A program made the translations under genes and the position numbers. The notes under the pieces are model-generated. The model saw only the letters and a list, made by a program, of their open reading frames with translations. It did no database searches and was not told the origin of the DNA. 50,120 nucleotides of DNA from Chiloscyllium plagiosum (lineage: Eukaryota), in assembly GCF_004010195.1 (NCBI RefSeq), contig NC_057749.1, positions 15,258,436 to 15,308,555 of the forward strand, written 5' to 3'. This document shows positions 1,157 through 50,120 of this stretch, in pieces. Position 1 is the first letter of the stretch, and each line of letters starts with the position of its first letter.

Positions 1157-1369
1157 GGAGAAACTGAGGTCTGCAGATGCTGGAGATCAGAGATGGAAAT
1201 GTGTTGCTGGAAAAGCGCAGCAGGTCAGGCAGCATCTAGGGAACAGGAGAATCGACGTTTCGGGCATCAGCCCTTCTTCAGGAAGAAGGGCTAATGCCCG
1301 AAACATCGATTCTCCTGTTCCCTAGATGCTGCCTGACCTGCTGCGCTTTTCCAGCAACACATTTCCATC
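1157..1369. mobile_element. Penelope-like terminal fold-back insertion with hammerhead motif
   Basis: 90-bp inverted arms 1190-1279 and 1282-1371, a 33-nt unpaired tail 1157-1189, and a 14-bp TSD tcatcattctcata (1143-1156 and 1370-1383). Confidence 0.8.
1250..1284 (-). ncRNA. Minimal type I hammerhead ribozyme motif
   Basis: Minus strand reads UUC-CUGAAGA-A-GGGC-UGAU-GCCC-GAAA-CG-UC-GAUU. Confidence 0.65.
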
Positions 1370-1661
1370 TCATCATTCTCATAACCAAGCCTGCATCCAG
1401 AGTAATCCTTCTCAGTGATCTTTAGGTCTCACATACCTTCAGCTAATCCTTTTCCTTTCACATCACCTCCATGTCAGAAACCATCATGCCTACAATGGGT
1501 GCACCTCACCCCAGAAAGGATGAGGGAGGTGGTGAGAAGAGGAAGGATGGGTGGCTCCAGAGAGACGCTGGTCTCCATCTCATAACCTTACCAGTTGTAG
1601 TGCTGGGTTAGAGTGGTGCTAAAAAAGCACAGCAGTTCAGACAGCATCCGAGGAGCAGGAA

Positions 1662-1697
1662 AATCGACGTTTCGGGCAAAAGCCCTTCATCAGGAAT
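1662..1697 (-). ncRNA. Minimal hammerhead ribozyme motif
   Basis: Minus strand reads AUUC-CUGAUGA-A-GGGC-UUUU-GCCC-GAAA-CG-UC-GAUU. Confidence 0.7.
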
Positions 1698-1860
1698 ACA
1701 GGCAGAGAGCCTGAAGGGTGGAGAGATAAGAGAGAGGATGGTGGGGGTGGGGAGAAAGTAACATAGAGTACAATAGGTGAGTGGGGGAGGGGATGGAAGT
1801 GATATGCCAGGGATGAGGGTGGAGTGGATAGGTGGAAAAGAAGATAGGCAGGTAGGACAA

Positions 1861-2765
1861 NNNNNNNNNNNNNNNNNNNNNNNNNNNNNNNNNNNNNNNN
1901 NNNNNNNNNNNNNNNNNNNNNNNNNNNNNNNNNNNNNNNNNNNNNNNNNNNNNNNNNNNNNNNNNNNNNNNNNNNNNNNNNNNNNNNNNNNNNNNNNNNN
2001 NNNNNNNNNNNNNNNNNNNNNNNNNNNNNNNNNNNNNNNNNNNNNNNNNNNNNNNNNNNNNNNNNNNNNNNNNNNNNNNNNNNNNNNNNNNNNNNNNNNN
2101 NNNNNNNNNNNNNNNNNNNNNNNNNNNNNNNNNNNNNNNNNNNNNNNNNNNNNNNNNNNNNNNNNNNNNNNNNNNNNNNNNNNNNNNNNNNNNNNNNNNN
2201 NNNNNNNNNNNNNNNNNNNNNNNNNNNNNNNNNNNNNNNNNNNNNNNNNNNNNNNNNNNNNNNNNNNNNNNNNNNNNNNNNNNNNNNNNNNNNNNNNNNN
2301 NNNNNNNNNNNNNNNNNNNNNNNNNNNNNNNNNNNNNNNNNNNNNNNNNNNNNNNNNNNNNNNNNNNNNNNNNNNNNNNNNNNNNNNNNNNNNNNNNNNN
2401 NNNNNNNNNNNNNNNNNNNNNNNNNNNNNNNNNNNNNNNNNNNNNNNNNNNNNNNNNNNNNNNNNNNNNNNNNNNNNNNNNNNNNNNNNNNNNNNNNNNN
2501 NNNNNNNNNNNNNNNNNNNNNNNNNNNNNNNNNNNNNNNNNNNNNNNNNNNNNNNNNNNNNNNNNNNNNNNNNNNNNNNNNNNNNNNNNNNNNNNNNNNN
2601 NNNNNNNNNNNNNNNNNNNNNNNNNNNNNNNNNNNNNNNNNNNNNNNNNNNNNNNNNNNNNNNNNNNNNNNNNNNNNNNNNNNNNNNNNNNNNNNNNNNN
2701 NNNNNNNNNNNNNNNNNNNNNNNNNNNNNNNNNNNNNNNNNNNNNNNNNNNNNNNNNNNNNNNNN
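1861..2765. other. Assembly gap (N run)
   Basis: 905 N. Confidence 1.
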
Positions 2766-2839
2766 TGTACTCTATGCTACTTTCTCCCCACCCCACCCTC
2801 CTCTCACTTATCTCTCCACCCTTCAGGATCTCTGCCTGT

Positions 2840-2875
2840 ATTCCTGATGAATGGCTTTTGCCTGAAACGTCGATT
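2840..2875 (+). ncRNA. Minimal hammerhead ribozyme motif with a slightly decayed stem II
   Basis: attc-ctgatga-atggc-tttt-gcct-gaaa-cg-tc-gatt. Confidence 0.6.
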
Positions 2876-3009
2876 TTCCTGCTCCTCGGATGCTGCCTGA
2901 AATGCTGTGCTCGTCCAGCACCACTCTAATCTAGACTCTGGTTTCCAGCATCTGCAGTCATTGTTTTTACCTAGTTGTAGTGCTGGGAAAGAAGATCCTT
3001 TTCCAAACT

Positions 3010-3270
3010 GACGGCAATTAAGGCCCTCAAATGGTCAAGTAATAGCCAATTAAGGGCCTCAGCCTACTACCGATCTGATTACCTATCTTCCCAATCAGCA
3101 AGAAAAATGGCTGGCTTCCCACTTGACACCATGGGTGGACGTCCACGATGACCTAACTACCTAATTGGTAACTGGAGGCATGGAGAAGAGACTGGTGCAA
3201 TGCCTCTGAAAACCACCAGCCCCCACCCTTGCCTTTTACACCACCTCCCTCTCCACATGACACCCACCCT
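3010..3270. mobile_element. Old non-autonomous DNA-transposon-like repeat with an internal palindrome
   Basis: aggccctcaaatggtcaagtaatagccaattaagggcct is an imperfect palindrome; a related copy lies at about 48050-48090. Confidence 0.35.
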
Positions 3271-4029
3271 GCAAAAAAACAAAAGAGGAAGATCTACCTT
3301 CTTGCTCTTAGAGTAGCCAACGACTGGCAGTCTTTTGGACTCAGCCTCCGATTGGCCACCGATGAGTCAGGATTCCGCAGTTGAGGTGTGTGATTTGTCA
3401 AGAAGCTCACTGGTCAGCTTTTTAACAAGCTGATTGGTGTGTGATCAGACATGCTGCAGGGCAGCAAGTTAGATGACAACTAATATATCTGTCCCCATAC
3501 TTAACCAGAGGAGGGAACAGTCTCAGCTAATATCCTGGCAGTTTATATCTTTGATATATAAATATTCACTGAGTACCATCCTGTACAAGTGCCAGGAAAG
3601 ATCAGTCTAATCAAATTCCAAAATAGAAATGTTAACTGTTGAACTAGACATTTCTTATTTGCACACAAATTAGTCATTGATTATAGACAAAAAAAACCTG
3701 TCCTATTGTTTTGCATCAAACAAGGAGACCTGTTCTGGGGATGGGAGTGGGCTTGATGGAGTGAGGGTGGCACATGTTTAAGGTTCCTTATACATCAAAT
3801 AAATTGGCTGTAAATCATTCTCCGAGTTTGTTATACGACAGTGAAGGGGCTTTGGAAATTCTCAGACAGCAGAGGTTTCACTTTCCCATTTGAGAGTGTG
3901 GGTACACACCAGCCTGAACTGATCTTAGAATAGGATAAAAGGCCAGCACAACATGAGGCCTGTACTGTGCTCTACTGTTCTATGCCTATGTTCCAACATT
4001 GTAGGAGAGCAAGAAGTGACTTGCTATGT

Positions 4030-4520
4030 CTGAGTGCAAACGTACCCCTGGAATTTCTGTGTTTGATATGTGTCATGACATTGCCCATGTACCCATGCTG
4101 TTTCCCTTGACGGTCGGAAAAGGGGAAGATGAGTTGATGTTTCCATGTATATCCTGCTCTTGTCCTTCTTAGTGGAAGTGGTCATGGGTCTGGAAGATAA
4201 TGTCAAATTGGTGAATTTCTGCAGCGCATCTTGTAAACAGTACATACTGCTGCTACAGAGCGTCAGCGGTGGAGAAAGTGGATATTGAAGGTGGTAAATG
4301 TGGTGCCAATCAAATGGGACGCGTTATCTTGGATGGTGTCAAACTTGTTGAGTGTCAGAGCTGCACTGGTCCAGGCAAGCGGGGAGTATTCCATTACACT
4401 CCTGACTTGTGTCTTGTAGACGATGGAAAGGTTTTGGGGAGTCAGGAGATGAGTTACTTCCCATAGAATTCCCATCCTCTGACCTGGCTTGCAGCCACAG
4501 TGTCTATATCGCTGATCCAA
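4030..4520 (-). mobile_element. Old CR1/L2-clade LINE reverse-transcriptase C-terminal fragment
   Basis: Translation LSIVYKTQVRSVMEYSPLAWTSAALTLNKFDTIQDNASHLIG is a typical post-RT motif. Confidence 0.8.
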
Positions 4521-4989
4521 ACTGTAAAGTAAGACCAAGTGAGTAAGGTACCAAAAGAACAATTGAGGTGCATTTCCCAGGAGGGATCGATGCTTTCAGG
4601 TAAGGAGGGCACACAACTGAAAACCAACCTCTAACATAAAAGACTACATTTTGACTCATAGTGTCAATGACCTAACTAAGAGATGAAAAAGAAATTATCT
4701 GATTTTGAGGCCCTCTTCGGAAAGTGACTGGCAGGCCAGCATCCCAATGTTTCGCTTGAAAATTGAGGATACCAATATCAACAGGAGGAAACATCGGGGG
4801 GTAGGAAACATTGGAGGATTACGATCCAGAGAAGGGGTCCCAGGGTCACCATGGATCAGATTGCTTTGGTAAGTTCACAACGCTTCAAAGCTTATATTTT
4901 ACAGTTCACTTTGTCCACCTGTGGAACTGCATACAGTGTGTATGCATAACTCTGACCAGTTTCTACCCAACAGCAACAGGGATCTGTTT

Positions 4990-6000
4990 GCAGCTTGTAT
5001 TTCCATATTAAGAGGGTCCAATAACCTGCTATAAAGGGTCATGAGGAAGATGGAATACCCTCCAATACAGTCACCGATGTGGAGTGTGGCACACTCCTGC
5101 TGTGAGAGTTGGACCCTAAACAAAGAGGCCGAGAGGAAGTTTAAAAATGTGGGTGGGGCAGAGAATGCACAGAATCAGCTGGATGGACAGAAAGACAAAT
5201 GAGTGGAATGGAGAAAGGACAGAAATTCAGCAATCAAGAATCAAGAGGTCCTTTGAAAGAGAAAGATAGCTAACGAAGGACATTAGGAAAGAAGAGCCCA
5301 ACACACACAAACGAAGCTGCATCAGGACACTATTCAAAAGGGCCACAACACACTGCAGTACACCAGGACTGCAAAAAGAAGAAGAGGAACACCTATACAA
5401 GGTATTCGCCAAAAACGGATACCCGCGCAACTTCATCAACAGATGCCTAAGAGAAAGACCACAGAACGAGGACATACCACAACCAAAAGGACTAGCCAAA
5501 CTACCATACATCAGGAGCATCTCCTTGAATGCATGCCCCCTAGTTTTAGGCATTTAATTCGACTGGGACAACACTACTATCATAGGGCAAGCCAGACAGA
5601 GAACAGCCAGGGAATTCCTAGAGGCATGGCATTCATCCACAAACTCCATCAACAAACACATCGACCTGGACCCAATATACCAACCACTACAGCGGACAGC
5701 TGAAACTGACAACCGGAAGCGGCAGGGACAGACCACTATAAACACCGGAGGAAACATCAAAGAAGCGCTTCGCAGGAGGCTCCTAAGCACTAATGATGTC
5801 GCCTAGCCAGGGGACGAAATGTTTGCAACAAAATCTTCCAGCTCGGCAAACAGAACCACAACAAACAAGAGCTGACCTGCCAACATGGAGAAGGAGAAAT
5901 CAAGACGAAAACAGAAAAGGAAGAAGACAATCCAGATGGGTGGACCATGCTGCGACATGGACCCCCAAAGAAAGATGGGTCACAGAAGAACCAAACAATG
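4990..6000 (+). mobile_element. Decayed RTE-clade LINE 3' fragment interrupted by a Penelope element
   Basis: CESWTLNKEAERK and RMHRISWMDRKTNE motifs (about 5095-5205); RKGRRQSRWVD after 5900. Confidence 0.65.
5297..5865 (+). mobile_element. Penelope-like element (RT thumb/GIY-YIG C-terminus and 3' pLTR), 5'-truncated and internally deleted
   Basis: PNTHKRSCIRTLFKRATTHCS…VFAKNGYPRNFINRCL and FDWDNTTIIGQARQRTAREFLEAWHS…NKHIDLDPIY; decayed hammerhead at about 5788-5826. Confidence 0.85.
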
Positions 6001-6532
6001 ACACTTGAGTGACAATGAACAAGCACCACAGGAAAGTGATTTGGACACAGGATGGTCATCATTATCTGAATAGGAATAGTCAATGTCAGTGTGTTAGAAC
6101 AGCCATCCAATTTTGAAACCATTGCCAACCAAATATATCAGGTGTAGGTACTCAAAATCAAACCTAAATATTGTTTATTCTATGATCTGCTGAAGTATAG
6201 ATTTCAGATTTGCTTTAATGATATCCAAAATAAATGGAGTTGTGGTTGAGTTGTTTTATGTGATTTTCTTTTTCCATTTCTTCAGTTTACTGGAGCACTT
6301 TTGAAGGAAAATCTGTTTGATCTGGTACAATCAGTAAGTTAAAGCACAACAGTACTGTTCGTTCTGTTACAAAGTGTACAACAATAGACAGCAGAAACAT
6401 TGAGATCTGCAGCAGAAAACAGCATGGAGAAAGTTATTTGACATCCATGAGAGTTAAAATTTCCACTACACTTGACTGACCAAATTAGATGGGACCATTT
6501 TATATTGGGTACCACTGGAGTGAGAGGAACTA

Positions 6533-7185
6533 CAGAGTCATAGAGACATACAGCACAGAAACAGACCCTCCACTCCAACTCATCCATGCCAACCAGATAT
6601 CCTAAATAAATCTAGTGCCATGTGCCAGCATTTGGCCCATATCCCTCTAAACCTTTCCTATTCTTATATCCATCCAGAAGCCTGTGAAATGTTCTAATTG
6701 TACCAACCTCCACCACTTCCTCTGGCAGCTTATTCTACATATGTACCATCCTTTGCATGGAAAAGTTGCTCCTTAGGTCCTTTTAAAATCTTTTCCTCTC
6801 TCACCATAAACCTATGCCCTGTAGATTAGATTAGATCCCTACAGTGTGCAAACAGGCCATTCGGCCCAACAAGTCCACACCAACCCTCCCAAAAGGGTCT
6901 CCCAAGAGAGTTTTGGGCTCCTCCACCCTGGGGAAAAGACGTTCTGCATTTACTCTATCAACCCCCTCATGGTTTTATAAAGATGACCTCTATAAGGTCA
7001 CCTTTCAGCCTCCAACGCTCCAAGGAAAATAGACCCGATCTATTCATTCTCTCCCTATAGCTCAAACCCTCCAACCCCGGCAACATCCTTATACATCTTT
7101 CCTGAACCCTTTTAAGTTTCACAACATCTTTCCTCTAGCAGGGAGATCAGAACTGCACGCAGTATTCCCATAGTGACCTAACCGG
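6533..7185 (-). mobile_element. CR1/HER1 LINE 3' fragment with an HE1 SINE tail inserted at about 6824-6895
   Basis: Reverse complement of the CR1 3' region; the tagattagattagatccctacagtgtg insert is a SINE tail. Confidence 0.85.
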
Positions 7186-7544
7186 GCAGCAGAATCAACA
7201 CTTCATCACAGTAATTCCCACTTCTCAATTTATAGACTTTTGTCTATTAGAGGATAATGATTGTATCCTGCTCAAGTGTGATACAATTGATCCATTATTC
7301 TACACAGCATCTGTTAAATAAATATTTCTTTAAAACAACACAAGTGGAATCAGTAAGAAAGACAAAGTGCACCAGCAATAAACCACAAAATGATTGTTTA
7401 CCTTCCACTTGAACTGTCTCGTAGTGTTTACTGTTGAAAATATTTTTATCTAGAGGTCAAACACCATTATTTCATTGATAAAAGACTGCTCTGTGACGAG
7501 TTTGATTACTTCAGGCTAAGAACCATTCAGCCACAATGCTTTGA

Positions 7545-7940
7545 CTCTGTTGGTTCAGGTTGCTTCCAAGTCAAAATGTCATGAGTTTGAGGCCTGGTCT
7601 GAAACCAACACTCCTATTCTCAGCTAACAGGCATCTAGTGCTACACTTGAGGAACTGTTCTGTTGTTTGACATGCTGCCCTTTGTGAAAAAAATGTTAAT
7701 TATAGTTTCAATTTGCTGCCTGAGGTTGCTATTAGAAGATACCATGGAACTGTCTGAAGACCAGGAAGGAGATGTTCCCTAACCAGTATTCTTCCCCATG
7801 CAGAATTATGGTTAAATGGTCTTAAAATAAATGTCATTTGTAGACTCTTAACATGCATAAAATGAATAGTATGTTGGGCAATCTAACAGCATTCACTGTA
7901 TTTGAATGTAAAAGACTCTGTGAAATGCTATGACACATAC
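7545..7940 (+). mobile_element. Old Deu-domain (SacSINE1-like) SINE
   Basis: Degenerate similarity to 35085-35490 (ctagtgc…gagg…gataccatggaactgtctgaaga). Confidence 0.5.
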
Positions 7941-8570
7941 TGAAAACCATGTGGGGTGAACTGGTCACATCAAACACCATGAGATTTGATAATTATTCCC
8001 CATGTATGGTTCTATAACTCTGCCTTACCAGAATGTCTTTTTACATGCTTTTCCTGCAATCCAGTTTACTTCTGGAAAGATGATATTTATCATCATTGTA
8101 ACAATAGTAACTTTTACATACTGCCATGTTATTCCAGTATCTAAGGTCAAGGCAGGTCTTTTTCATATAATCTTGTAGACAACTTGCTCCCATGCTAGGA
8201 TAATTTGTTTCCTTATTTTGCACCATGTGTTAAAAAGATTATAAGAGGTCCTTATTGGGCCAGTGGGTAAGTACATCACTCCTTTGTAAGACCACCTTGA
8301 TGCCTCTCTGACAGGAAATCATTAATGGGTCAAAACACCCTCAGCTCAGCACAGAGGACGCAGAAAACAATGTTTTGGCCCCAATCTCTTTTCTTCTAAT
8401 TACTCCCCTGTTGGACACTTATTGGGCTGAACCAGTCTTGGCATTCTATTTAACAGAGTTAGGCTTCAAATCCCACATCCATTGCTAGGATTGCTTGCTT
8501 CTAGCCCTATCTCAGACTTCTGCCAAGCAAGTGAGTATCCATGTTTTTGTTACATACAAATCCAATTCAA

Positions 8571-10005
8571 GTCATAGAGATGTATAGCATAGAAACAGAT
8601 TCTTTGCTCTAACTCATCCATGCCAACCTGATATCCTAAATTAATCCAGTACCATTTGGCCCATATCCCTCTAAACCCTTACTATTCATATACCCATCCT
8701 GGTACCTTCTAAATGTTGTCATCACACCAGCCTCCACCACTTCGTCTGGCAGCTCATTTCATACACACACCACTCTCTGTGTGAAACATTCCTCCATTAG
8801 GTTCCTTTCAAATCTTTCCCCTATCATCTTAAACTTATGCCCTCTAGTTTTGGATCCCCTAACCCAAGGAAAAGACCATGTCTATTCATCCTATCCATGC
8901 CCTTCATGATTTTATAAACTTCTATAAGGTCACCATCCCTCAGCTTCTAATGCTCCAGGGGAAACAGCACCAGCCAATCAGCCTTTCCCTATGGCTTAAA
9001 CACTCCAACCTTGGCAACATCCTTTCATTTTTGAACACTTGCAAGTTTCACAACACCCTACCTATAGCAGGGAGACCAGAATTGCACACAGTACTCTAAA
9101 AGTTGCCTAACCAATATCAGGTACAGCCGCAACATGATCTCCCAACTCCTATACTCAATGCACTGACCAATAAAAGCAAACATACCAAACGCCTTCTTCA
9201 CTATCCTATCGACCTGCAACTCCCTTTTTAAGGAACTATAAACCTGCACTCCAAGCTCTCTTTGTCCAGCAACACTCCCCAGGATTTTACCATTAAGTCT
9301 ATAAGTCCTGCTCTGATTTGCCTTTCCAAACTGCAGCACCTCACATTTAACTAAATTAAACTCCATCTGCCAAACCCCGGCCCATTGGCCTATCTGATTA
9401 AGATCCCATTGTACACTGAGGTAACCTTCTTCACTGTCCTCTACACCTCCAATTTTAGTGTCATCTACAAACTTACTAACCATATATCCTATGTTCCATC
9501 CAAATCATTTATATAAATGACGAAAAGCAGTAGACCCAGTACTGATCCTCCTGGCACCACCACTGGGTACAGGCCTCCAGTCTGAAAGGCAACCCTCCAC
9601 CACCACCCTCTGTCTTCTACCTTCAAACCAAATTTGCTAGTTCTCCTTGTATTCTAAGTGGTCTAATCTTGCTAACCTGTCTACCATGAGGAATCTTGTC
9701 AAATGCCTTACTGAAATCCATATAGATCATGTCCACCACTCTGCCTTCATCAAGCCTCTTCGTTACTTCTTCAAAAAACTCATTCAAATTCATAAGACAC
9801 AATTTCCCATGCACAGGTTGACTACCCCTAATCAGTTCTTGCTTTTCCAAATATAGGTAAATCCTGTCCCTCAGAATTCCCTCCAACAATTTGCCCAGCA
9901 CTGATATCAAGCTCACCAGTCAATATTTTCCTGGCTTTTCCTTATCACCTTTCTTAAATAGTGACATCATATTAGCCAAGCTCCAGCCTTCCGGCACCTC
10001 ACCTG
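8571..10005 (-). mobile_element. CR1/HER1 LINE, 5'-truncated, frameshifted RT
   Basis: ORF fragments containing YMDFSKAFDKIPH, SKFVDDTKIGG and LEYCVQFWSP. Confidence 0.92.
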
Positions 10006-10015: not shown

Positions 10016-10105
10016 ACCGTCTTTCAGAAATTCCAACTGAAACGTCGACTCTCCTGCTCCTTGGATGCTGCCTATGCTTTTCCAACACCACACTTTTTGA
10101 CTCTT
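10016..10105 (+). mobile_element. Penelope-like pLTR fragment truncated within the hammerhead
   Basis: ctgaaacgtcgactctcctgctccttggatgctgcc…tttccaacaccacac. Confidence 0.65.
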
Positions 10106-27240: not shown

Positions 27241-27599
27241 TCTGCATTTGTGATAATGTATTTGTACAAAGCTTTTTTTTATGAATAAGGTATGTTTTTG
27301 AAATAAAAGAAGATGCAGTTTTTCACTTTACACAAGTGAGTGTAGACAGTGAGGGTCAGCAGGCTATTCAGAAACAGTTGTCACAGCTGAGTCTGATCCG
27401 GACAGCTCAATTTCACATTTTCTGCATTTGTGATAATGTATTTGTACAAAGCTTTTTTTATGAATAAGGTATGTTTTTGAAATAAAAGAAGATGCAGTTT
27501 TTCACTTCACACAAGTGAGTGTAGACAGTGAGGGTCAGCAGGCTATTCAGAAACAGTTGTCACAGCTGAGTCTGATCCGGACAGCTCAATTTCACATTT
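27241..27599 (+). repeat. Tandem duplication, two copies of about 180 bp
   Basis: 27241-27420 is nearly identical to 27421-27599 (one T indel and one substitution seen). Confidence 0.95.
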
Positions 27600-35490: not shown

Positions 35491-36722
35491 AGTGATTTTT
35501 TTTCTAAATTTCAAAAGACATCAAAGCTGAGTTCTATCATGTCCTCATTGAATGCCCACATGCTGGCATCATGTGGCAGTGCTGCTGGATGTGGAACAAT
35601 TGCAGGTGAACTTTCTGTTCCCTATTCCAGGAGACCGACTACTGACTGAACATGGCTTCGAATTCACAGTAAGAGCTGCAAACTGCTCCACAACGAACGT
35701 GACAATAACACATTGTCTATTTTGGCAGTAGGCACAAAGGCATGTTTAAACCTAGATAAACACACACATTTCAGCTTGTTATTGCCAGTAAATTACTGGT
35801 TTGCATTTTTTGAAATGTTGTTAATGCAGAAAAATTCATTTCAGCTCTTTTGATCCTCCCAGTTGTGCTGTGGCACCTGTGACGCAACATAATGAAAGAC
35901 TCTTGTTTATCACATCCAGCTCCTCAGCTGCCCTGAAGCCAATTCTTTGAGGAGCGTAAAAGAATGTACAAAAGGAAAACTGGAACAAGATTACAATTTG
36001 TTATTAAAGTTATTAAGTAAAGTTTTACTAACCTCAAATTATCTTAGAATCAGTGACAACAGGAGGAAAATATATGGTATACTCCACAAAAATACTAAGT
36101 TTTAAAATCACAGACTATTTGAAGCGAATTCTCTCTTTTGATTTATACAGAATCATAAACTGGTGTGTCCTACAGTTATGTGGTTAATATTTTACAACAG
36201 GCAGCAATAGCAGTTTGCATCAATGTTATAACTCCATCAGCTTCTGCCCCTGTGAGAGGTAGAGAACATGCTTTCTATGCACTGTTCCATCCAGCTATCC
36301 AGTTACTGAGACAGCTTTTACAGTCAGCTCCTTCAATAGCCCAATGAGCCATTTTATCTGCGCAGGTGTGCAGTGTTGAGTCAGCTGCCACTTGTTTGTG
36401 TGAACAGAATCACTGGGTGCTTGTGTCCCTGAGATAAGCAGAGGGAAGAAAAGCACAGGTGATCTACATACGGTCACTTCCCATAAAGCATGCAAGTATG
36501 TGGATGTTAGGTGATCCTGGTTGGCAGCAGTGGGCCTTTACAAATAAACAGTTTGTGGACACTATGTTTTGGCTGGTTTGAATACTGGATATATTCCACA
36601 GCTTGTGGAATTGTACTACAATAACAACTACTTATATTTATAAGGTACTTTTAATGCAATGAAACGTCCCAAGACATGTCACAGGAGCAAAATAAATTAA
36701 GTATGACATTGAGTGATATAAG

Positions 36723-36806
36723 CTGAAAATGTGTTGCTGGAAAAGTGCAGCAGGTCAGGCAGCATCCAAGGAGCAGGAGAATTGACGTTTCGGGCATGAG
36801 CCCTTC
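36723..36806 (-). mobile_element. 84-bp Penelope-like pLTR arm truncated in the hammerhead core
   Basis: Same module as 1190-1279; flanked by tataag direct repeats (36717-36722 and 36807-36812). Confidence 0.75.
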
Positions 36807-36984
36807 TATAAGGATCAGGTGAACAAAAGCCTGATCAAAGAGATAATTTTAATAAGTGTCTTAAAGGAGGAAAGTGAAGTCAAAAGGCAGAGAGATTGTA
36901 GGGTGAGAATTCCTGAGGTTTAGACCTCAAAAATGAAGTCATATTGGGATAATCACAATTGGAAAAGCACATTCACATTTGTTG

Positions 36985-39225: not shown

Positions 39226-39520
39226 AAATTTGGAGAGGGTGTATTCTTCAGGGTTGCACACAGCGTGGTTCTGGAGATTGATCAATTCCTGCAGTTTCCC
39301 GACCAATCCTGGAGGGTTGGCAGTTCTACGTGGGGCTGATTATTTGTTCAACTTGTTAGCTGGGGAGGAGGAGATTTTGGCTGTGTTCAAAACTGGGTTC
39401 AAGCAATGAGAAAGAACAGCAGTCTTGCACGGTGGTGGGGTTGGACATTACGGCAGTTTGTCTGAAGAATCATAGAGATGTACAGCATGGAAGCAGACCC
39501 TTTGGTCCAACTTGTCTATG

Positions 39521-39612
39521 ATGGAAATGTGTTGCTGGAGAAGCGCAGCAGGTCAGGCAGCATCTAGGGAACAGGAGAATCGACGTTTCGGGCATTAGCC
39601 CTTCTTCAGGAA
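39521..39612 (-). mobile_element. 92-bp hammerhead-bearing Penelope-like insertion inside a CR1 tail
   Basis: 15-bp TSD tccaacttgtctatg (39506-39520 and 39613-39627); minus strand reads UUC-CUGAAGA-A-GGGC-UAAU-GCCC-GAAA-CG-UC-GAUU. Confidence 0.82.
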
Positions 39613-39769
39613 TCCAACTTGTCTATGCTGACTGAAATAACTGCACAGACAACAGCATCCCAAGTCACCCTTTATTTACTTGTGCACAGTATACAGATTT
39701 TGAAGCTCCTGTTTTATTTTACTTTCCTTTTTTTTTCTAGAGGTAGTGCTTATTTTTCCTCAGCATCCA

Positions 39770-39902: not shown

Positions 39903-41620
39903 CTAACTCCCTGTTTTAAAAAAAAATTATTAAACAAGGCACAGTTAACACAACAGTTAACATTAACAGCTGTATACAGAAAAACAGCAATTTTACAAGG
40001 GAGAGGAGCAGCAACACCAGGCCTCAAACCCGACCGTTCAACCAATTTTCGGGAAATTACAAACCTCAAATCCCAGTTTCAATCATTACAAACAGTAATA
40101 ATGACATTTGTACATACAAGACAGTCCAATTACATAAGAAACAGTGCATACAATACAGACCCCCAGAAAGTCCCCCCGTCCCTCCCACCTTCTGGCCACT
40201 CTAAGGCAGCCCACCCCTACGTACCTTCTGAGTCTCGGTCTGCCCTGACACACCTTTCGACCACCTGTAGGACAGCCCGCCCCGGTACCCGCCCGGGGTG
40301 ACAGCGGTCAGGACGGCCTACCCACCTTCCGGCTTCACTAACCACCCTCAGCACCTTCCGACCACCTCTAGGACAGCCTGCTCTGGTACCCGCCCAGGGT
40401 GACAGCGTTGAGGACGACCTACCCGCCTTCTGGCTCTTGGTCTGCCCCTACGTACCACTGGGGTCTCACCCACCCCGATGCGCCATCTGGCCCGTGGAAC
40501 TACCTTGACACACCTTCCACCACCTCTGGGACAGCCCGTCCCTTCCCCTGGGACGAAAGCGTGCAGGGCAGCCCACAATCCTTCTGGTACTCAGCCTGCC
40601 CCTTCGCGACTTCTGGCTCTCGGCTGCTCTGACACACCTTCCGACCACCTCTAGGACAGCCCGTCCCGATTACCCTTCTCGGGACGACAGCACTCAGAAC
40701 GGCCTACCCACCTTTTGGTTCTTGGGATGGCCTACCCACCCTCCAGCTTTTGGGACAGCCTACCAACCTTCAGGTTCACAGAATGGCCTACCCACCATCC
40801 GGCTCTCAGGGTGGCAGCTTTCAGATTGACCTATGAGCCTCCCAGCTCACAGTAATGCCTGCCAGCTCCAGGGACACACAAGACAGTGCAGGTGATAACC
40901 CCAACAAACCACATGACAGAATCAATTATCAGCCAACAGAGTCATTTCTGGTACACACAGAGTCCATTACCATAAACAGTTTTCTTCAAAATGTAGAGTT
41001 CATTCCCAGGAACAGAGTCCACTCCAGTATACAAAGTGCATTGTCAGAAATGGGGTCCACTCCAAACAGCAGAGTTCGTTGCTAAAAAACAGAGTCCACA
41101 ACCAAGGGCAGAGTCCACTCCTGAAGGCAGCAAATGCACACCCCCACAGCACACAGATATTCAATCTCCATGGAGTCCTGGCCCATCCTTGGAGAACCAG
41201 GCCCACTCACAGGAACATAGTACATTGTGAAGGTGCAGTTAACTCACAGGGGTTTGGTCCACTCCTGAAGACAAGGTCTTCTCCCAAAACTCCAGGATAC
41301 AGCAAGTGCTCACCTCCCAGCACACACACAGGTGTTCAGTCTTTGCAGAGGCCTAGGCCAAGGGTCAGGCCTACTCACAGGAACAGCTCTTCTGGAAAGT
41401 TGTAGTTTCTCACAAGGGCTCGGTCCAAACACCAAAACAAAAGTGAAGACACATCCAAAAAACAAAACAAACTAGTGTCCAAGGGTTAAGCCCGGCCACA
41501 AAATCAACATTGTCCTTTTCTCAAAAGTGAAAAAGAGTAACACACAGGCTGTAACCAGCCAGTGAAACAACAACCCCCCAATGAGGCCTGAGTCACACCT
41601 GAAACACATTTTGTGCATCA
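39903..41620 (-). mobile_element. Non-coding internal region of a putative non-autonomous LTR element
   Basis: Adjacent to the PPT and LTR; strong strand bias; internal tandem repeats; no recognisable gag or pol. Confidence 0.5.
40195..40815. repeat. GC-rich tandem array (four units of about 100-160 bp plus ggcctacccacc sub-repeats)
   Basis: Repeated cacctt(c)cgaccacctctaggacagcc…acagc…ggcctacccacc. Confidence 0.85.
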
Positions 41621-42012: not shown

Positions 42013-42724
42013 GATATATAATGACAGTACAGAAGCTAGCCCTACAAGAGGTGATACTTGCTGGAATATCATTCCACTGTTGATTGTATAGTACACTACA
42101 GTGTTTGTACAACTGGCCAATGGCCATTTTAAGCCTCCCCAATTAGCTACAAGAATTGTGAGGATCTGTATAGAATGGCCTCATGTAATGTTCCTATCCA
42201 TTCCCAATGTTCACCCAAATGTACTCACTCATAGGAAAAGGTTTAGGGGAAGGAAATGTCTACCTTTCTTACTCAAGAGTCTCAATTCCTCACAACCATA
42301 ACTCTCGCTCTGATCAACCTACGAATAGGAAATAGAAATTGAGCCGAAACTTTCCTGTTCCACACACTTGCGTCTCACATAGCATGGTGCATTTAGCAAC
42401 TATCTGGGTGGTGAAAATTAGCTATAATTTTAATCACAGAGGGAGCAAAATTCTACTCAGTCTTTTATTCCTCTGGTGTAAAATCAGAACTGAACTTCTG
42501 AGTTTTATGTCACAAACCGTCACACTCAAACTAATACCAGATACCTTGCTGATGGGCAGTTGAAAAAAAGGGTGAGGTTCCTTAAGTATGGAAGCTGGGG
42601 TTTCTATACTGCTTTAAAAAGTACAATTCTGAAACTCAGTTCCTCAGGAAGGAGCTTAGCCATACACACTCCAGCTAGCTGTAGCAGGCATTCAGCAGTG
42701 TTGTCATCTGTGTAGACTTCCCAA

Positions 42725-43115
42725 GTATGCGCTCTACTCTCAGCTCTGAAATGGCAGGTCAGCCCCAGGTGGACAGAAGTGGAGGTTCAGGGATACCCTC
42801 AAGGCCTCACTTAGTGAAGTGTAGCATTCCCACAGATACTTGGGTATCACTGGCGCATGACGGTCCCAACTGGAGGAGGAGCATCTGGGAAGGCGTTGAG
42901 CACCTTGAGACTTGCAGTTGGAAGCCAGGTGAAAACAGCGTCAGAGTGTGCTGCCACACCAATGCCCCATTCACCCCTTCCCATGACCACCACCTGTCCC
43001 AAGTGTAATGGAGCCTGTGGCAGCCACGTGGGTCTGTACAGCCACCTAATGACTCACCCTGAGAATGGAAGAGAGTCATCCTCGTCTGCGAGGGTCCACC
43101 AATGAATGAAATGAA
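42725..43115 (+). mobile_element. RTE LINE 3' end
   Basis: TCPKCNGAC…GLYSHLMTH zinc-finger-like C-terminus; aatgaatgaaatga tail. Confidence 0.85.
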
Positions 43116-43540
43116 AAACTCTGTGATCCACAAACAGAGCTTTTATCCAAAGAGACCCTGGACTATTTTTCCTAGACACATAAAATACTCTTCCCATTCA
43201 GGACAATTCCACTGATTGCTTACCTTTGTCCCCACCAACCCTCCCTCCTGAAGAGCCCACCTTTCTCACAGGCCCCTCTCCCATTCTGATCTATGATGTG
43301 GCTCAGATTAAGAGCTGCCAAATCACATCATCACCAACTTTACATCCAACTTTGTCGTAAGGGTCAAAAGTCATTGGTTTCTAACAAGTTTCAACCTAAA
43401 ACTCAGTGGGGCTATCTACACTCCTTAAGATATTGAAAAATATTGTTAATCACAACGTTCATGTCTGTTACCATTAGTTATAACCTGAGTAGGTATTTTG
43501 GTTAAGCCAGGAATTTCTAGCTAAAGTTTTTGACAAAAAA

Positions 43541-43759
43541 TACAGCATTCTGCTATAGTGCGTTCACATTAATGCGAGTTCACAAGCACACTATTGGCGA
43601 ATTGGAGACACTGTTTCTAAACCACAAAACTTTTAAAGTGTGTATTCATTATAACGCAATTCTGGCCCCATTAGTTTAAATGGAGCTGCTATTACACAAT
43701 CTTCTTATAACATGAGATCGCACAAGAACAGTTCCACTGCATTATAGCAGAACCGAGTA
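43541..43759. mobile_element. MITE, Tc1/mariner (Pogo/Tigger-like)
   Basis: Terminal inverted repeats ttctgctatagtgc and gcattatagcagaa, with TA at both ends. Confidence 0.7.
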
Positions 43760-44499
43760 GGAACTCAAAAAATACTTGGAACTCAATGTATGCTTACAGT
43801 GCATAGCACCATCTACTGTTTAGAAGTGGAAATATTTATTATCCTGTAATTCCTAATAATAGTTCATTCAGGAATGATGAACAACATCTGCTGTCCTGCC
43901 GAGTAATATTGCAAACTTGTCAAATGTGAGAATTTCAACTTTTGATTCTCCTAATTTTCAAGGCAGTTTAATATTGAGAGCTGAACTGTGGCAAATGGAA
44001 TTTATATAATCCTGTACAGTGTGAGGTGATGCATTTTAGTAGGCCTGAAAGGCAAGGGAGTGTATATTGAATGAAAGGATCCAAGGCACTACAGAGGATC
44101 AGAGGGACCTTGGTACAAATGGCCATAGACCCTGGAAGGAGCAGGATAGTTAGATAAGGTGATTAAGAAGGCATTTAGGACACTTGCCTTTATAGTCAAG
44201 GCAATGAGGGAGGATATGATGAAGCTGTATATAATGTTAGTCAGGCCACAGCTGGAGTACTGTTTACAATTCCGGTCACCACACTGTGGAACAGATGTGA
44301 TTGCATTAGGAAGTGTGCAGAAGTGATTCACCAGGATGTTACCTGGGATGGAACAATTCAGCTATGAAGAGAGACTAGATAGGTTGGTGCAGAGATTGCT
44401 GGAAAACCTTAGCAGGTCTGGCAGCATCTGTGGAGAGAAATCAGTTAATGTTTGGGGTCCAGTCACCTTTCCACAGAACTCATCATGGGGACAGTCGTG

Positions 44500-45860
44500 A
44501 CAGAGACGGAGGAACTGGGAGAAGGAATTGCTGGATGTCTTGAAAGGGTTAAAGGTGGATAAATCCCTAGGACCTGATCAGGTGTACCTGAGAACTCTGT
44601 GGGAAGCTAGAGAAGTGATTGCTGGGCCTCTTGCTGAGATATTTGTATCATCGATAGTCACAGGTGAGGTGCCGGAAGACTGGAGGTTGGCAAACGTGGT
44701 GCCACTGTTTAAGAAGGGTGCTAAAGACAAGCCAGGGAACTATAGACTGGTGAGCCTGACCTCGCTGGTGGGCGAGTTGTTGGAGGGAATCCTGAGGGAC
44801 AGGATGTACATGTATGTGGAAAGGCAAGGACTGATTCGGGATAGTCAACATGGCTTTGTGCGTGGGAAATCATGTCTCACAAACTTGATTGAGTTTTTTG
44901 AAGAAGTAACAAAGAAGGTTNNNNNNNNNNNNNNNNNNNNNNNNNNNNNNNNNNNNNNNNNNNNNNNNNNNNNNNNNNNNNNNNNNNNNNNNNNNNNNNN
45001 NNNNNNNNNNNNNNNNNNNNNNNNNNNNNNNNNNNNNNNNNNNNNNNNNNNNNNNNNNNNNNNNNNNNNNNNNNNNNNNNNNNNNNNNNNNNNNNNNNAG
45101 GACTTATACACTTAATGGTAAGGTCCTAGGGAGTGTTGCTGAACAAAGAGACCTTGGAGTGCAGGTTCATAGCTCCTTGAAAGTGGAGTCGCAGGTAGAT
45201 AGGATAGTGAAGAAGGCATTTAGTATGCTTTCCTTTATTGGTCAGAGTATTGAGTACAGGAGTTGGGAGGTCATGTTGCGGCTGTACAGGACATTGGTTA
45301 GGCCACTGTTGGAATATTGCGTGCAATTCTGATCTCCTTCCTATCGGAAAGATGTGGTGAAACTTGAAAGGGTTCGGAAAAGATTTACAAGGATATGGCC
45401 AGGGTTGGAGGACCTGAGCTACAGGGAGAGGCTGAACAGGCTGGGGCTATTTTCCCTGGAGTGTCGGATGCTGAGGGGTGACCTTCTAGAGGTTTACAAA
45501 ATTATGAGGGGCCTAGATAGGATAAATAGACAACGTCTTTTCCCTGGGGTCGGGGAGTCCAGAACTAGAGGGCATAGGTTAGGGTGAGAGGGGAAAGATT
45601 TTTATAAAAGAGACCTAAGGGGCAACTTTTTCACGCAGAAGGTGGTACGTGTATGGAATGATCTGCCAGAGGATGTGGTGGAGGCTGGTACAATTGCAAC
45701 ATTTAAGAGGCATTTGGATGGATATATGAATAGGAAGGGTTTGGAGGGATATGGGCCAGGTGCTGGCAGGTGGAACTAGTTTGAGTTGGGATATCTGGTC
45801 GGCATGGATGGGTTGGACCCAAGGGTCTGTTCCCATGCTGTACATGTCTATGAATCTAAG
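44500..45860 (+). mobile_element. Young CR1/HER1 LINE, 5'-truncated, containing a gap
   Basis: EVPEDWRLANVVPLFKKG…GNYRLVSLTS…QHGFVRGKSCLTNLIEFFEEVT. Confidence 0.93.
44921..45098. other. Assembly gap (N run)
   Basis: 178 N. Confidence 1.
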
Positions 45861-46511
45861 TCTTTACACGAAGCAGGATGAGATGATGTATAGTCAAGGT
45901 AACTGTGGGATTTGGTAGGGTTGTAATGGAAGTTCTGAGGAAGGGTGACCAGACCCAAAATATTAACTGATTTCTCTCCACGATGCTGCCAGACCTGCTG
46001 AGCGTTTCCAGCAATTTCAGCTTTTGTTTCTGCTTTCCAGTTTTTATCTAGTAATGCTGGACTTGTTTTCTTTAGAGTAAGAGATGGCTGAGTGGGGATC
46101 TTAATGAGTTATGAGAGGTAAAGACAGGGTAGATACATAGAACCCTTTTCTGTTAGCCGAGGATCGCTAACCAGGGAACACAATTTTAAGGTAAAGAGCA
46201 GGAGGTTTAGAGGGGATTTGTGGAAATAAAATGTTTTCACCTGGAGGGTTATGGCTATCTGGAACACATGCCTGAAAGAATGGTAGAGGTGGGAATTCTC
46301 AAGATATTTAAGAACTATTTAGATGATCACTTGAAATGCCATAGCTATAAGCCTAGAGTTGTAAAGTGGGATTAGAAAAGATGGATGTTCGGTGACCAAT
46401 GTGGCAATGATGGGCCAAAGGGCTTCTTTCTGTGCTGGAAAATCTCAATGACTCGGATTATATATTTGCATGTACACTAATGAAGAGAGAAATGCTGCCA
46501 AAGTTTGTAGT

Positions 46512-46707
46512 TGAAACTTTATTGCTGGAACAGCACAGCAGGTCAGGCAGCATCCAGGGAACAGGAGATTCGACGTTTCGGGCACAGGCCCTGGCCTGTG
46601 CCCGAAACGTCGAATCTCCTGTTCCCTGGATGCTGCCTGACCTGCTGTGCTGTTCCAGCAATAAAGTTTCAACTTTGATCTCCAGCATCTGCAGACCTCA
46701 CTTTCTC
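46512..46707. mobile_element. Penelope-like perfect fold-back insertion
   Basis: 82-bp arms 46509-46590 and 46593-46674, 2-nt spacer, 33-nt tail 46675-46707, 17-bp TSD ctgccaaagtttgtagt (46495-46511 and 46708-46724). Confidence 0.88.
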
Positions 46708-47119
46708 CTGCCAAAGTTTGTAGTCAAATGTGAGAATGCCAAATTTCAAACCTGTCAATGAATAAAACAAAAGTCACCATAATTTGTACTACAGGAGAAG
46801 AGAATGCTGAAGAGTCAACTCTGATTGGCTGGGGCTTTTCCACTGAGAAAACAATGAGGAAAATATTCAGCAATATCTGTCTCTTTAGGCAATTCAAGTT
46901 CTGTATTCCCAAACTACTGCTTATGTTTATATCCATAAACAATTAGACTTTATGTGAACGTTCATCAAAACGATGACAGAATCTGTCATATTTGTCCTCC
47001 ACCTTTCTTCCCAATACCTTTGAGTGAAGGGACAAGGTTTCAGAAGCTAGTCAAAATTTGCCCGGGTAGACAATGTTTATAAATGAGCTTCCATGGAAAG
47101 TGATGGCAGGCCTGCTGAC

Positions 47120-47240
47120 GCATGCACATAGAGCACACACACAGGTGCAGACACATACACACGCATGCATACAGATACATACACAAACTACACACGTGTA
47201 AGATAAACAAACACATCCATGCACAGATACACATACACAA
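47120..47240. repeat. Degenerate (CA)n microsatellite
   Basis: cacata/cacac-rich. Confidence 0.8.
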
Positions 47241-47564
47241 ACCCAATAATGAATACACTTGTCAGCAGAGCTCTGGAAGTGTTAGAACTCTGGCTGAATT
47301 TCCTCAAATTAATTCAGGCGTACAAACAGGGACTAGCTGTTGCTTTGGTTGAGATCAGCTAACACTGCAAAGATGAAGAAAAAAATCATGGTCTTTGTTG
47401 TTCCATACCACATCATATAATGTCTTAATCAACTGAGGCATCAGGAAGACCCCAAATTATGTGAATGGAAGGAAGAACTTTTTTTAAAGAATGTATGGAA
47501 AGAAACAAATAAGTAGAATAAAGATATTTATTTGGTGTTTCTAAAGTATGTTTCAGGGACATTC

Positions 47565-47690
47565 CAGACGGACTCGTGCCTGAAACGTCGACTCTCCTGT
47601 TCCTCAGATGCTGCCTGACCTGCTGTGCTTTGCCAGCGCCACCCTTTTCAATTCTGACTTCTCCAGCGTCTGCAGTCCTCACTTTCTCCA
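47565..47690 (+). mobile_element. Penelope-like pLTR 3' fragment with tail
   Basis: gtgcctgaaacgtcgactctcctg…ctccagcgtctgcagtcctcactttctcc. Confidence 0.75.
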
Positions 47691-48361
47691 GTTCCCTCAG
47701 TATGCTCATATCATCTTAGAGAAGATATGCTGTATATAAGCCCTTACTTCATTAAAGAATTGTTGAATAGTAAATGACCGCTGTGAGTTCTTGCTGTACA
47801 TCTAAGTGTTAGTCTGACAGACTGTTGCTTTTTGACTAGTCTGATACCAGGAGGGGTTTCCACTGCAAAGTTTAGCACATGTAAATTTTAAGCAAATCAT
47901 TAGGGCATGATTCTCCCCTCCCTGGAAGGTGGGAGAGAAGTCATAGTGAGGGTTAGCCCTGGAGAGAACCTCACCCCCTTCTCGTCACCTCTGCAAATTA
48001 AATGCTGGGTGGAAATATCTCCAGGCGACTTTCCTGTATCATCTGCATTTAAGGCCCTTAAGCGACCAATGAATGGCCATTTAAGGAGCTCAACCCACCA
48101 TACCCTCGATCACCCACCTCCTTGATGGGGTCAGAAAGGTTACTAGTTTCTCAACTGGGAACTGTGTGATAACTAACCCAACTGTGGAGTTAACAGGGTT
48201 GGTGATTGGGGAGAATGGGGCTGGGTTCATGTCTCTGCAAAGCCACCCTCTCACCCTTTCCTCTCACCCCCAACTAATGAGGAGAAAGTTAAAATAAAAA
48301 TCCTCTTGCCGCTGACCAGCCTAGACTGTTGGACTATAGCATCCAGAAGCTGCTGTCCTTT

Positions 48362-48520
48362 ATCATAGAGGTGTACAGCATGGAAACAGGACCTTCGGCC
48401 TAACTTGCCCATGCCACCCAGTTTTTACAATTTAAATCAGTCCCATTTGCCTGCATTTAGTCCACATCCCTTCATACTGATGACATCCAAGTACCTGTCC
48501 AAATATTTCCAAATGTGATA
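48362..48520 (-). mobile_element. CR1 3' tail
   Basis: tcatagaggtgtacagcatggaaacaggaccttcggcc. Confidence 0.75.
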
Positions 48521-48747
48521 GGGTACGATGCTTCCCCTCACCTGCCTCTCAGCTCTCCATGACAGGCAAGCAGATGAGTTATCTTGTTGGTTAGGGTGAA
48601 TGTACTCAGTGGCAGTGGCAAGTTGCCTTTCATTTAACATGCTCCTACATAGATAAATTACAGGAAAATTCTACCCTTATTTTTCCTTACAGGAGGCTGC
48701 CCTAAAAGCATGCTGAGTTTACAAGCAACACCAATAAGGTCCTATCA

Positions 48748-48880
48748 CAAAAGCAAAGTACTGAGGATGCTAGAAATCTGAAATAATAACAAAAAGTGCT
48801 GGAGAAACTCAGCAAGTCTGGCAGCATCTGTGGAGAAAGAAAGAGTCAATATTGACTCTAACATGACTCTTCAGAACTGA
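48748..48880 (-). mobile_element. Older Penelope-like pLTR fragment
   Basis: gatgctagaaatctgaaa…gtgctggagaaactcagcaagtctggcagcatctgtggaga…tcttcagaactg; same family as 44390-44480. Confidence 0.65.
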
Positions 48881-49942
48881 GGACTTTATGTAATAAAAAT
48901 GATATTTGATTCTTTCCTATGTAGAGTTTGCTGATCACAACCAGCGATGGTGTCTCTGGGATTGGAAACAGTAAAATGTGTAGGTTTGCTGTTCCTTATT
49001 GTTATCTAGCCAGCTTTGCTGGAAAGGCCAACATGGATATGTTGGGATTGGGGATGTGTCTGAGATTCCACCCCACCCCCCATCTCCACACCCACCCCCA
49101 AGCATTTAGATATAAAGAAGTATCATCAATGTGTTGGGAATAGATTCTTGTGCACGTGCGGCAAGCAGATCATTGCCCTCAGGAGAGGAAAGGTGAAAAA
49201 CTGATGAGAAAATGACAAGTAGAAAACACATTATGAAAATGACAGGAGTGCATTAAGTTGTTGGACATATCAATGGAGCATTGCAATAATTTGGGAAACA
49301 TCCAAATTGTCTTCTGTACTAAGTTACACTCCTGTGTTAAGGAGCCCTTAGGCCAGAACACGTCACAAATAAGCTTTTGGATATAGCTGGAACATACCGT
49401 GTAGATATATTTAAATTAGACAAAAAAAGTGCTACCTTAAAATCCCACAGGAAGTCCATGTTACTTTTACCTATATCCACTATTCAAATTACTTCCCTGA
49501 AGGCATTGACTCATGTTGGGATACTGTACCACAGATGCTGGCTGCTATCCCAAGCCTCACCCAAGTTGCTGTTCTCCATGTGTGGGCCGAGACACTGAGT
49601 GCCAATTGACAATCTGACTTTGGAGCTAACACAGCCAAGTTAGATCAATCGCTCACTTAATGTCCACCACTGAGCATGTTCCATCAGGAGTCGCACAGTC
49701 TGGGAAGCAAACTTGGAACTTTCTTGGTCTTCATGTTTATATCTGAAAGAAATTCATCATCCAGTTTCCTGCCCTCACCTCCCGAAGGAGCTGATCTGTG
49801 CTGAAGTATGATACAGTAAGTCCTTAGACCACTCTGATTAATCAAAAGCCATGACTCAGCGGGTAGCATTCTTGCCTTGAGTCAGAAAATATCCAAATCT
49901 CTCCCTAGAGATCTGAGCCCATAACTTGCATTCACATTTTAC

Positions 49943-50120
49943 TTAAAAATGTGTTGCTGGAAAAGCGCAGTAGGTCAGGCAGCATCAAAGGAACAGAGAA
50001 TCGACGTTTCGGGCATACGCCCTTCTTCAGGAATGAGGAAGGTGTGCCAAGCAGGCTAAGATAAAAGGTAGGGAGGAGGGACTTGGGGGAGGGGCGCTGG
50101 GAATACGATAGGTGGAAGGA
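49943..50120 (-). mobile_element. Penelope-like element end with an intact hammerhead motif (about 49999-50034), running off the window
   Basis: Minus strand reads AUUC-CUGAAGA-A-GGGC-GUAU-GCCC-GAAA-CG-UC-GAUU. Confidence 0.8.

Follow-up and report, generated by a model that had tools for sequence, protein, structure and literature searches.

Candidate minimal hammerhead ribozymes, very probably debris of a Penelope-like element, in a 50-kb stretch of the shark Chiloscyllium plagiosum

Penelope-like elements (PLEs) carry minimal hammerhead ribozymes in their pseudo-long terminal repeats (pLTRs). The portions of Cervera and de la Pena 2014 (PMC4209133) that define this ribozyme give four hallmarks: conserved boxes in type I order, a base left unpaired between position 9 and position 10.1, a G10.1-C11.1 closing pair and a palindromic 15.2/16.2 pair. 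In the same portions, helix I is 4-5 bp long and covaries between families. The activity of the PLE hammerhead in vitro is low, and it was not needed for insertion in an assay of the anole element. Here we analyze a window of 50,120 nucleotides from Chiloscyllium plagiosum (contig NC_057749.1, positions 15,258,436 to 15,308,555), the whole stretch of DNA under study, in which an earlier note made from the letters alone had reported a dispersed family of such motifs on short Penelope-like modules. We are confident that the motifs are minimal type I hammerheads from the pLTR of an endonuclease-bearing (EN+) PLE, and that the copies are dead-on-arrival debris of that element.

Insertions of PLEs have a characteristic anatomy. 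As far as the relevant part of PMC8557442 describes them, they comprise an inverted, 5′-truncated copy and a tail of 30-40 bp, and they cause assembly problems; the section of PMC3846280 on insertions describes the layout that we see here. The second relevant system is the animal non-LTR retrozyme. In the part of PMC7229834 that introduces them, retrozymes are tandem units of 150-450 bp that bear canonical type I hammerheads, with a helix III stem-loop and a 6-bp helix I, and that give rise to circular RNAs. A preprint (10.64898/2026.07.22.740005) also admits minimal motifs in its main account and still requires tandem units; its supplements may list shark families.

The exact core CUGA(A/U)GA-A-GGGC-N4-GCCC-GAAA-CG-UC occurs four times in the window, at 1254-1281, 1666-1693, 39582-39609 and 50003-50030, always on the minus strand. 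With up to three mismatches allowed, the pattern matches seven times, and none of 100 dinucleotide shuffles gave a match, so none reached the count of seven. A descriptor built on the structure (core boxes, at least 4 pairs in stem II, two helix I pairs and a palindromic 15.2/16.2) returned the same four cores without mismatch and a fifth, at 45935(+), with one; it matched nothing in Markov-simulated windows (sets of 12 and 6). The four intact cores of the earlier note are thus borne out by both searches. Its slightly decayed plus-strand copy was also found, at 2844-2871(+) with two changes. Its partial copies were recovered at 36784-36811(-), 46512-46707 and 47560-47690(+), and the one that it placed at 10016 lies at 10039-10100(+), about 20 nt off. 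To these we add 44385-44480(-), 45931-46060(+), 48750-48880(-), 5787-5830(+) and the arm 1282-1369(+). In the first three of these, pairs of helix I and of stem II have changed and the cut site is of the GUU type; all three share a tail motif with the main family, here called family A.

All four hallmarks of the PLE type, as set out in the defining portions of PMC4209133, are present, which supports the reading of the note that these are minimal type I hammerheads of the PLE kind. The CUGANGA and GAAA boxes, an NUH cleavage triplet and the type I order are found in the four exact cores and in none of the shuffles. The A after A9 and the G10.1-C11.1 closing pair occur in 4/4 intact cores and in seven of the nine rows of our alignment (A2). 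Loop 3 is absent, and positions 15.2-16.2 are C-G in every intact core and paired in 8/9 alignment rows.

Helix I adds covariation to this conservation. In nine rows, pairs 2.1:1.1 and 2.2:1.2 form throughout (9/9) and have changed on both sides, the third position is unpaired in five and the fourth is paired in seven. Across families A, B and D and the hammerhead of a metagenome contig, L001 (described below), 85% of cells are paired, against 19-47% in slid controls, and changes on both sides occur in 10 cells, a figure that none of 500 shuffles matches. With only nine aligned rows, related to one another, this covariation is support and not proof. It nevertheless bears on the idea that the motif is a hairpin that arose by chance within a repeat, without ribozyme ancestry. 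That idea can point to the lack of an Rfam hammerhead match, to a ribozyme activity that is a prediction from sequence, and to a double-hammerhead fold that is not the energy minimum; yet all 12 catalytic positions recur in four families that cannot be aligned, together with the extra nucleotide, the palindrome and a covarying helix I, and the same features recur in the PLE of another animal. We consider a chance origin barely credible.

The copies themselves (Table 1) have the anatomy of PLE insertions. The 11 family-A arms are not independent, because 1254(-) and 1282-1369(+), 1666(-) and 2844(+), and the two arms at 46.5 kb each make up one insertion, and they reduce to 8 insertion events; the earlier figure of about ten copies therefore holds for arms, not for independent insertions. 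Three events are head-to-head inverted pairs, in each of which one arm is the longer, by 35, 43 and 36 nt. In the first, pal1, the minus arm (1157-1284) has an intact core and a 35-nt tail; the plus arm (1282-1369) lacks C3-U4 and has a CpG change in the GAAACG box. The two arms overlap by 3 nt at the junction and differ at 2/88 positions. In pal2, both arms retain upstream pLTR sequence and the plus arm has a 43-nt tail. A scaffold gap of 905 N (1861-2765) occupies its center and may hide further element sequence. Both arms of pal46 start inside the core, without the CUGANGA box, and are identical over 79 nt, with a tail of 36 nt on the plus arm. The solo insertion 39521-39612(-) starts 3 nt upstream of C3, has no tail and sits at the 3′ end of a long interspersed element (LINE)-type repeat. 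Target-site duplications (TSDs) of 14, 15, 15 and 17 nt were found at 4 of the 12 flank pairs tested, the other eight giving none or 7-8 nt, and a TSD of at least 14 nt arose by chance in 0/400 random flank pairs. Upstream of the core, the copy at 49946-50120(-) is homologous to pal2 (0/300 shuffles align as well). The 36.8 kb copy has an upstream that is not homologous to that of the family (74 and 157 of 300 shuffles reach an equally good alignment); we take this upstream, 36812-36900, to resemble an L2 LINE 3′ end.

Table 1. Hammerhead-bearing features of the window and the insertions to which they belong
Feature	Coordinates	Strand	Remarks
Insertion pal1, two pLTR ends inverted head to head	1157..1369	.	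TSD 14 nt at 1143-1156 and 1370-1383
Core, intact minimal hammerhead	1254..1281	-	predicted cut after 1254; sequestered in pal1 hairpin
Insertion pal2, inverted pair around assembly gap	1608..2972	.	TSD 15 nt at 1593-1607 and 2973-2987
Core, intact minimal hammerhead, UUUU loop subfamily	1666..1693	-	pattern and descriptor searches
Core, decayed, sister arm of 1666-1693	2844..2871	+	G10.1 and C11.1 both changed to U, pair destroyed
Poseidon-type PLE open reading frame 3′ fragment with its own decayed, different minimal hammerhead (family D)	5297..5870	+	hammerhead at about 5787-5830
Family-A remnant limited to GAAA box, cut site and tail	10030..10105	+	TSD of at least 7 nt not found
Family-A copy, first box damaged or absent	36715..36811	-	core match at 36784-36811(-)
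Solo insertion, 92 nt	39521..39612	-	TSD 15 nt at 39506-39520 and 39613-39627
Related subfamily B, decayed copy	44385..44480	-	helix I and stem II differ, tail motif as in family A
Subfamily B copy	45931..46060	+	one mismatch from descriptor; 4-bp helix I with changed pairs
Insertion pal46, inverted pair	46512..46707	.	TSD 17 nt at 46495-46511 and 46708-46724
Decayed family-A copy, helix I strand to full 3′ end	47560..47690	+	deletion in first box
Decayed copy of related subfamily C	48750..48880	-	
Family-A copy, intact core 50003-50030	49946..50120	-	upstream pLTR of at least 90 nt, cut off by the window edge

Most of these copies are broken or buried in folds. The core is intact in 4/11 family-A arms and broken in the other seven, and two of the four intact cores have an antisense partner within their own insertion. 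Whichever strand is taken, the small palindromes pal1 and pal46 fold as hairpins of about 80-90 pairs; inside the pal1 hairpin, stem II of the intact 1254(-) core has a pairing probability of 0.0. The earlier note expected these hammerheads to fold as dimers, and the window offers no local basis for that: the closest intact pair on one strand lies 412 nt apart and includes the hairpin-buried 1254(-). A local tandem dimer of 1254(-) and 1666(-) was ruled out on the same ground. If transcribed, the perfect 80-90 bp hairpins of the palindromic insertions are possible double-stranded RNA substrates, and two spurious Rfam microRNA matches below the gathering score (mir-942 and mir-680) fall on them, at 46555-46628 and 1231-1331.

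In several respects the shark copies resemble what has been described for PLEs. As in the parts of PMC4209133 that treat genomic distribution, there are thousands of dispersed single motifs, pairs on opposite strands 100-700 bp apart and several consensus families in one genome; the cores likewise share the type I order without loop 3, the palindromic 15.2/16.2 and G10.1-C11.1 pairs, the unpaired base between 9 and 10.1 and a short helix I. Truncation at the 5′ end, a head-to-head inverted copy, a 30-40 bp tail at one end, TSDs and assembly gaps at palindromes all match the units of EN+ PLEs (Penelope/Poseidon and Neptune) in the sections of PMC8557442 and PMC3846280 devoted to them. In the anole Poseidon element PAc, copies run through an uncut hammerhead, according to the portion of PMC11167929 that concerns it, and the same is true here. 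Two of the differences are of size: shark TSDs measure 14-17 nt against 8-10 bp in the rotifer examples of these partial accounts, and, unlike the PLE units described there, whole shark insertions can be as small as 92-213 nt.

These features also bear on the "retrozyme-like" label that the earlier note gave to the family, according to which the short module would be a self-propagating, non-autonomous retrozyme or short interspersed element that is transcribed, self-cleaved (in cis or as trans dimers), circularized and reinserted. Like animal retrozymes, the shark copies are short, non-coding, hammerhead-bearing, related to pLTRs and very abundant, and animal retrozymes do derive from pLTRs, as the main account in the preprint 10.64898/2026.07.22.740005 has it. 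The family is also seen in RNA, with 2,108 reads among 12.96 million in run X21. Unlike retrozymes, however, the shark copies are solitary or inverted, variable in length and minimal, with a helix I of 2-4 pairs. None of the three tandem arrays in the window overlaps a hammerhead motif. No copy starts at the cut site, and both the 5′ and the 3′ ends vary among copies. The X21 reads come from both strands alike (488 and 399 at the core), and 97% of them continue into unlike sequence, as expected of read-through; they fit read-through of scattered copies and are uninformative on cleavage. Run X22 contributed no reads, which is no test, and a search for RNA data sets covering 46800-50120 listed none. 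With the core broken in most arms, no tandem copy, and units that are truncated or inverted pLTR ends flanked by TSDs, the label does not hold, and we regard a retrozyme as very improbable.

The claim of a very large family, on the other hand, is upheld. Contigs placed on 49780-50120 (341 nt) number 31,436 for DNA run X1 (organism A) and 21,978 for run X10 (organism B), nearly all of them on the element part, the flank having the depth of a single contig. These figures show tens of thousands of distinct variants and are no measure of copy number. From 8 events in 49 kb we infer on the order of 10^5 or more copies in a genome of about 3 Gb, the size given for the whale shark in part of PMC8455134, an estimate that leans upward since the window was selected.

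Variation within the family respects the core. Among the 40 variant rows listed, those at 50000-50034 fall at helix I positions 1.3 and 1.1, loop positions 1-3 and N7. The 1.3 variant (10% in X1) turns the U-U mismatch into U-A, and the 1.1 variant (7-11%) is at a CpG. Among these rows, 0/23 constrained positions (14 core, 8 stem II, 1 extra) vary, against 4/5 free ones (Fisher p=0.0002) and 22/131 elsewhere (p=0.046). A likeness cut of 82% and weighting by depth tilt this comparison towards young copies. The proposal that the loop varies around a fixed core is supported for the family as a whole. It is weaker than first stated for the copies in the window from which it was drawn: these had been chosen for an intact core, and two of their five loop variants are mutations private to one copy. 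UGAU lies a single transition away from the UAAU of its sister arm in the same insertion, and the first G of GUAU is read otherwise in 88%+9% (X1) and 99% (X10) of the depth. Loop position 4 (50015) and a 19-nt tail motif (49968-49986) show no family-level variant among the rows listed. The tail motif is common to all subfamilies and is possibly a protein-binding site. A structured tail was considered and rejected: RNAalifold on four tails gave 19 pairs, none changed on both sides, and the 128-nt unit has z=0.0.

The link to a coding element comes by analogy. The metagenome contig L001 has a PLE gene and, about 570 nt downstream of it, the same 28-nt core design, in which helix I differs from that of the shark and is fully paired. 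This gene (81-2333) is frameshifted and of Neptune type; in its relatives, 56-72% identical over the main segments, the reverse transcriptase (RT) motif is accompanied by a CX2-5CxxC linker and by a GIY-YIG motif. Such a linker marks the Neptune and Nematis clades in the part of PMC8557442 on PLE classification. A pLTR location is strongly implied for shark family A, and the source PLE probably belongs to the Neptune clade. That assignment also agrees with general knowledge of shark repeats. Contig L001, although part of a metagenome collection, consists of vertebrate-like host DNA; a CCAAT-like motif lies 41 nt, and a TATA motif 33 nt, upstream of the A at which its hammerhead helix I begins.

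The window also holds a fragment of a coding PLE of another type. The Poseidon-type fragment 5297-5870(+) comprises the RT thumb and the C-terminus, with about 92 codons, including the GIY-YIG core, missing internally. Over 5297-5803 it is 92% identical to a protein of Hemiscyllium ocellatum (P0001) and 91% to one of Chiloscyllium punctatum (P0002), and its relatives have RVT_1 and weak GIY-YIG matches. Its hammerhead, family D, has a longer helix II and is the fourth hammerhead family in the window. The N-terminus of one gene model, P0010, matches the pLTR of this fragment, which resembles the anole element as portrayed in part of PMC11167929, where the open reading frame (ORF) starts in the ribozyme. 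The loop II ATG of family A was rejected as such a start: its frame closes 26 codons later.

A number of results weigh against assigning the motifs to the pLTR of an EN+ PLE. The Rfam search of the window, one of the checks that the earlier note had proposed, gave 6 matches at E<=5 and no hammerhead family. Helix II has 4 bp, below the 7-8 bp of the Schistosoma motifs treated in PMC4209133. Helix I, which departs from the hammerheads of that paper by a U-U mismatch in most shark copies, is weak, with two pairs, the usual mismatch and one further pair (3/4 first positions pair). For the four intact cores, the double-hammerhead fold lies 13.9-16.9 kcal/mol above the cofold minimum, in nearest-neighbor energies that ignore core contacts. 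Such a high-energy fold is in line with the low activity reported for dimers of PLE minimal hammerheads and agrees with the protein dependence of the anole ribozyme noted in the portion of PMC11167929 on its activity. TSDs are seen at 4/8 family-A events, the other four having none, one of them without a flank in the window. As to coding capacity, there is no family-A ORF in the window, where Pfam on 107 open frames of at least 78 aa gave nothing PLE-specific (the matches are RVT_1 on LINE fragments and weak unrelated ones), and a protein search with the tail frame gave nothing. Nor did tblastn of Neptune-type proteins (P0011-P0017) against the window find a match, and scans of viral and prokaryote contigs for a family-A ORF link returned nothing. 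L001 is the element of another animal, and only 28-34 nt of core are common to it and the shark family. Finally, the 40 variant rows listed leave 27 more unlisted; the seven unlisted X1 rows, all transitions by the run totals, would give p=0.06 if all of them fell in the core.

The assignment to a PLE nevertheless accounts for the shape of the copies through the following sequence of events. A source PLE would carry the hammerhead in its pLTR, under selection there, and the source ribozyme would cleave after GUC as a dimer or in a protein-assisted fold. Minimal hammerheads were reportedly seen to cleave as dimers by Lunse et al. in 2016. The PLE protein would nick DNA with a stagger that leaves duplications of 14-17 nt, and reverse transcription would start downstream of the ribozyme at either of two positions, the tail being present or absent accordingly. 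Synthesis of cDNA would then pass through the uncut ribozyme and often soon stop, or turn to give the inverted second arm. That the RNA template was uncut at this hammerhead is suggested because the copies run through the cut site. Genomic copies would then decay neutrally, mostly broken, solitary or locked in hairpins; cleavage by the cores in the window is itself a prediction. Selection would have acted on the ribozyme of the source element and not on its genomic copies.

The 5′ boundary of the copies requires its own explanation. Over 14 arms of families A, B and C, six start 3-5 nt upstream of C3, four start inside the core, three extend upstream and one is unclear; none starts at the cut site. 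Of the six, two boundaries are fixed by a TSD or junction and four by loss of similarity. The reading that we would put first, at somewhat under an even chance, is that the short units of 90-130 nt are cDNAs whose synthesis ran off the uncut 5′ end of the element transcript. RNA polymerase II would begin four bases upstream of C3, at an Initiator-like A; RT would start internally, some 90-125 nt downstream, and run off at the RNA end, sometimes turning to produce an inverted arm. Besides the six of 14 starts just upstream of C3 and the lack of any at the cut site, several observations agree with run-off. Loose contig ends pile up at 50033-50034 (165 and 232 in X1, 238 in X10; agreement 0.31-0.32), inversion joints lie at 50034-50037, and RNA-read depth falls from 785 to 228 across 50020-50055. 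The heptamer around the A at 50034 matches the Initiator consensus YYANWYY at 7/7 positions in both the 50 kb and 48.8 kb copies, against a background of 1.2% of positions, and L001 has TATAAA 33 nt upstream of the equivalent A. Internal initiation and the use of unprocessed RNA have been shown for the anole element, and TATA and Initiator motifs noted in pLTRs, in the pertinent parts of PMC11167929 and PMC3846280, respectively.

Part of the pile of loose ends, however, stems from another subfamily, whose upstream differs and has a consensus resembling the pal2 upstream, and the four arms that start inside the core and the three that extend upstream count against run-off. X21 shows no pile-up of RNA ends, though a polyA single-cell library is a poor test, and an extra G derived from a cap is only hinted at by the first loose letter, in X1 and X10 and not in X21. 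The AT-rich hexamer near -31 has a chance counterpart in the upstream of the 36.8 kb copy, which is unrelated to that of the family. For the same reason we gave little weight to a conserved TTATCT box at -30 to -32, which is found in both homologous upstream types and in that unrelated one as well.

Alternatively, the boundary could result from RT stalling or switching template at the folded hammerhead of the 3′ pLTR, rather than from an RNA end. The 3-nt microhomology at the pal1 junction, the pal46 arms that start inside stem II and the spread of breakpoints over 50023-50037 would all suit stalling. The weak monomer fold, with a helix I probability of 0.0-0.49, and a 128-nt unit that folds no better than shuffles, would not, and stalling does not predict the Initiator match at the boundary; we hold it to be the less likely account, though a serious one. 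If run-off cDNA is taken as the origin of the short units, it becomes conceivable, at a slightly lower confidence than run-off itself, that the commonest shark PLE product is a 90-130 nt copy of an uncut, capped 5′ leader in which the Initiator +1 A opens helix I. The tens of thousands of copies would then document in the genome a ribozyme that stays silent while the element retrotransposes, and from them the place where transcription starts and those where RT begins could be mapped at base resolution.

An abrupt start immediately upstream of helix I is not among the features given for PLE units in the parts of PMC8557442, PMC3846280 and PMC11167929 that describe them. Cartilaginous fish are not named in the results, discussion, opening methods or two supplements of PMC4209133, another supplement of which may list sharks, and a literature search outside subscription journals and Repbase/Dfam found, among the papers listed, no account of shark PLE hammerheads or of this 5′ boundary. 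One preprint covers a single chondrichthyan genome for tandem retrozymes. What is new here is the carpet shark lineage and the very large copy number, the catalytic RNA and the type of element being already known; the shark family looks larger than the 4,000-9,000 motifs of coelacanth and Xenopus reported in the distribution section of PMC4209133. Its value lies in a test of the template rather than in the motif. In a family this abundant, with ends defined by TSDs, counting how the two ends of the copies lie with respect to the cut site can test directly whether the template was cleaved, uncleaved or circular.

The rest of the window is non-coding, repeat-rich vertebrate DNA with LINE fragments, many dispersed repeats and two N gaps. 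At 27241-27599 a unit of 179 nt is duplicated in tandem almost perfectly (98% matches); the duplication contains no hammerhead and may have arisen in assembly. A GC-rich stretch at 40251-40815 carries tandem repeats of 101 nt and 28 nt.

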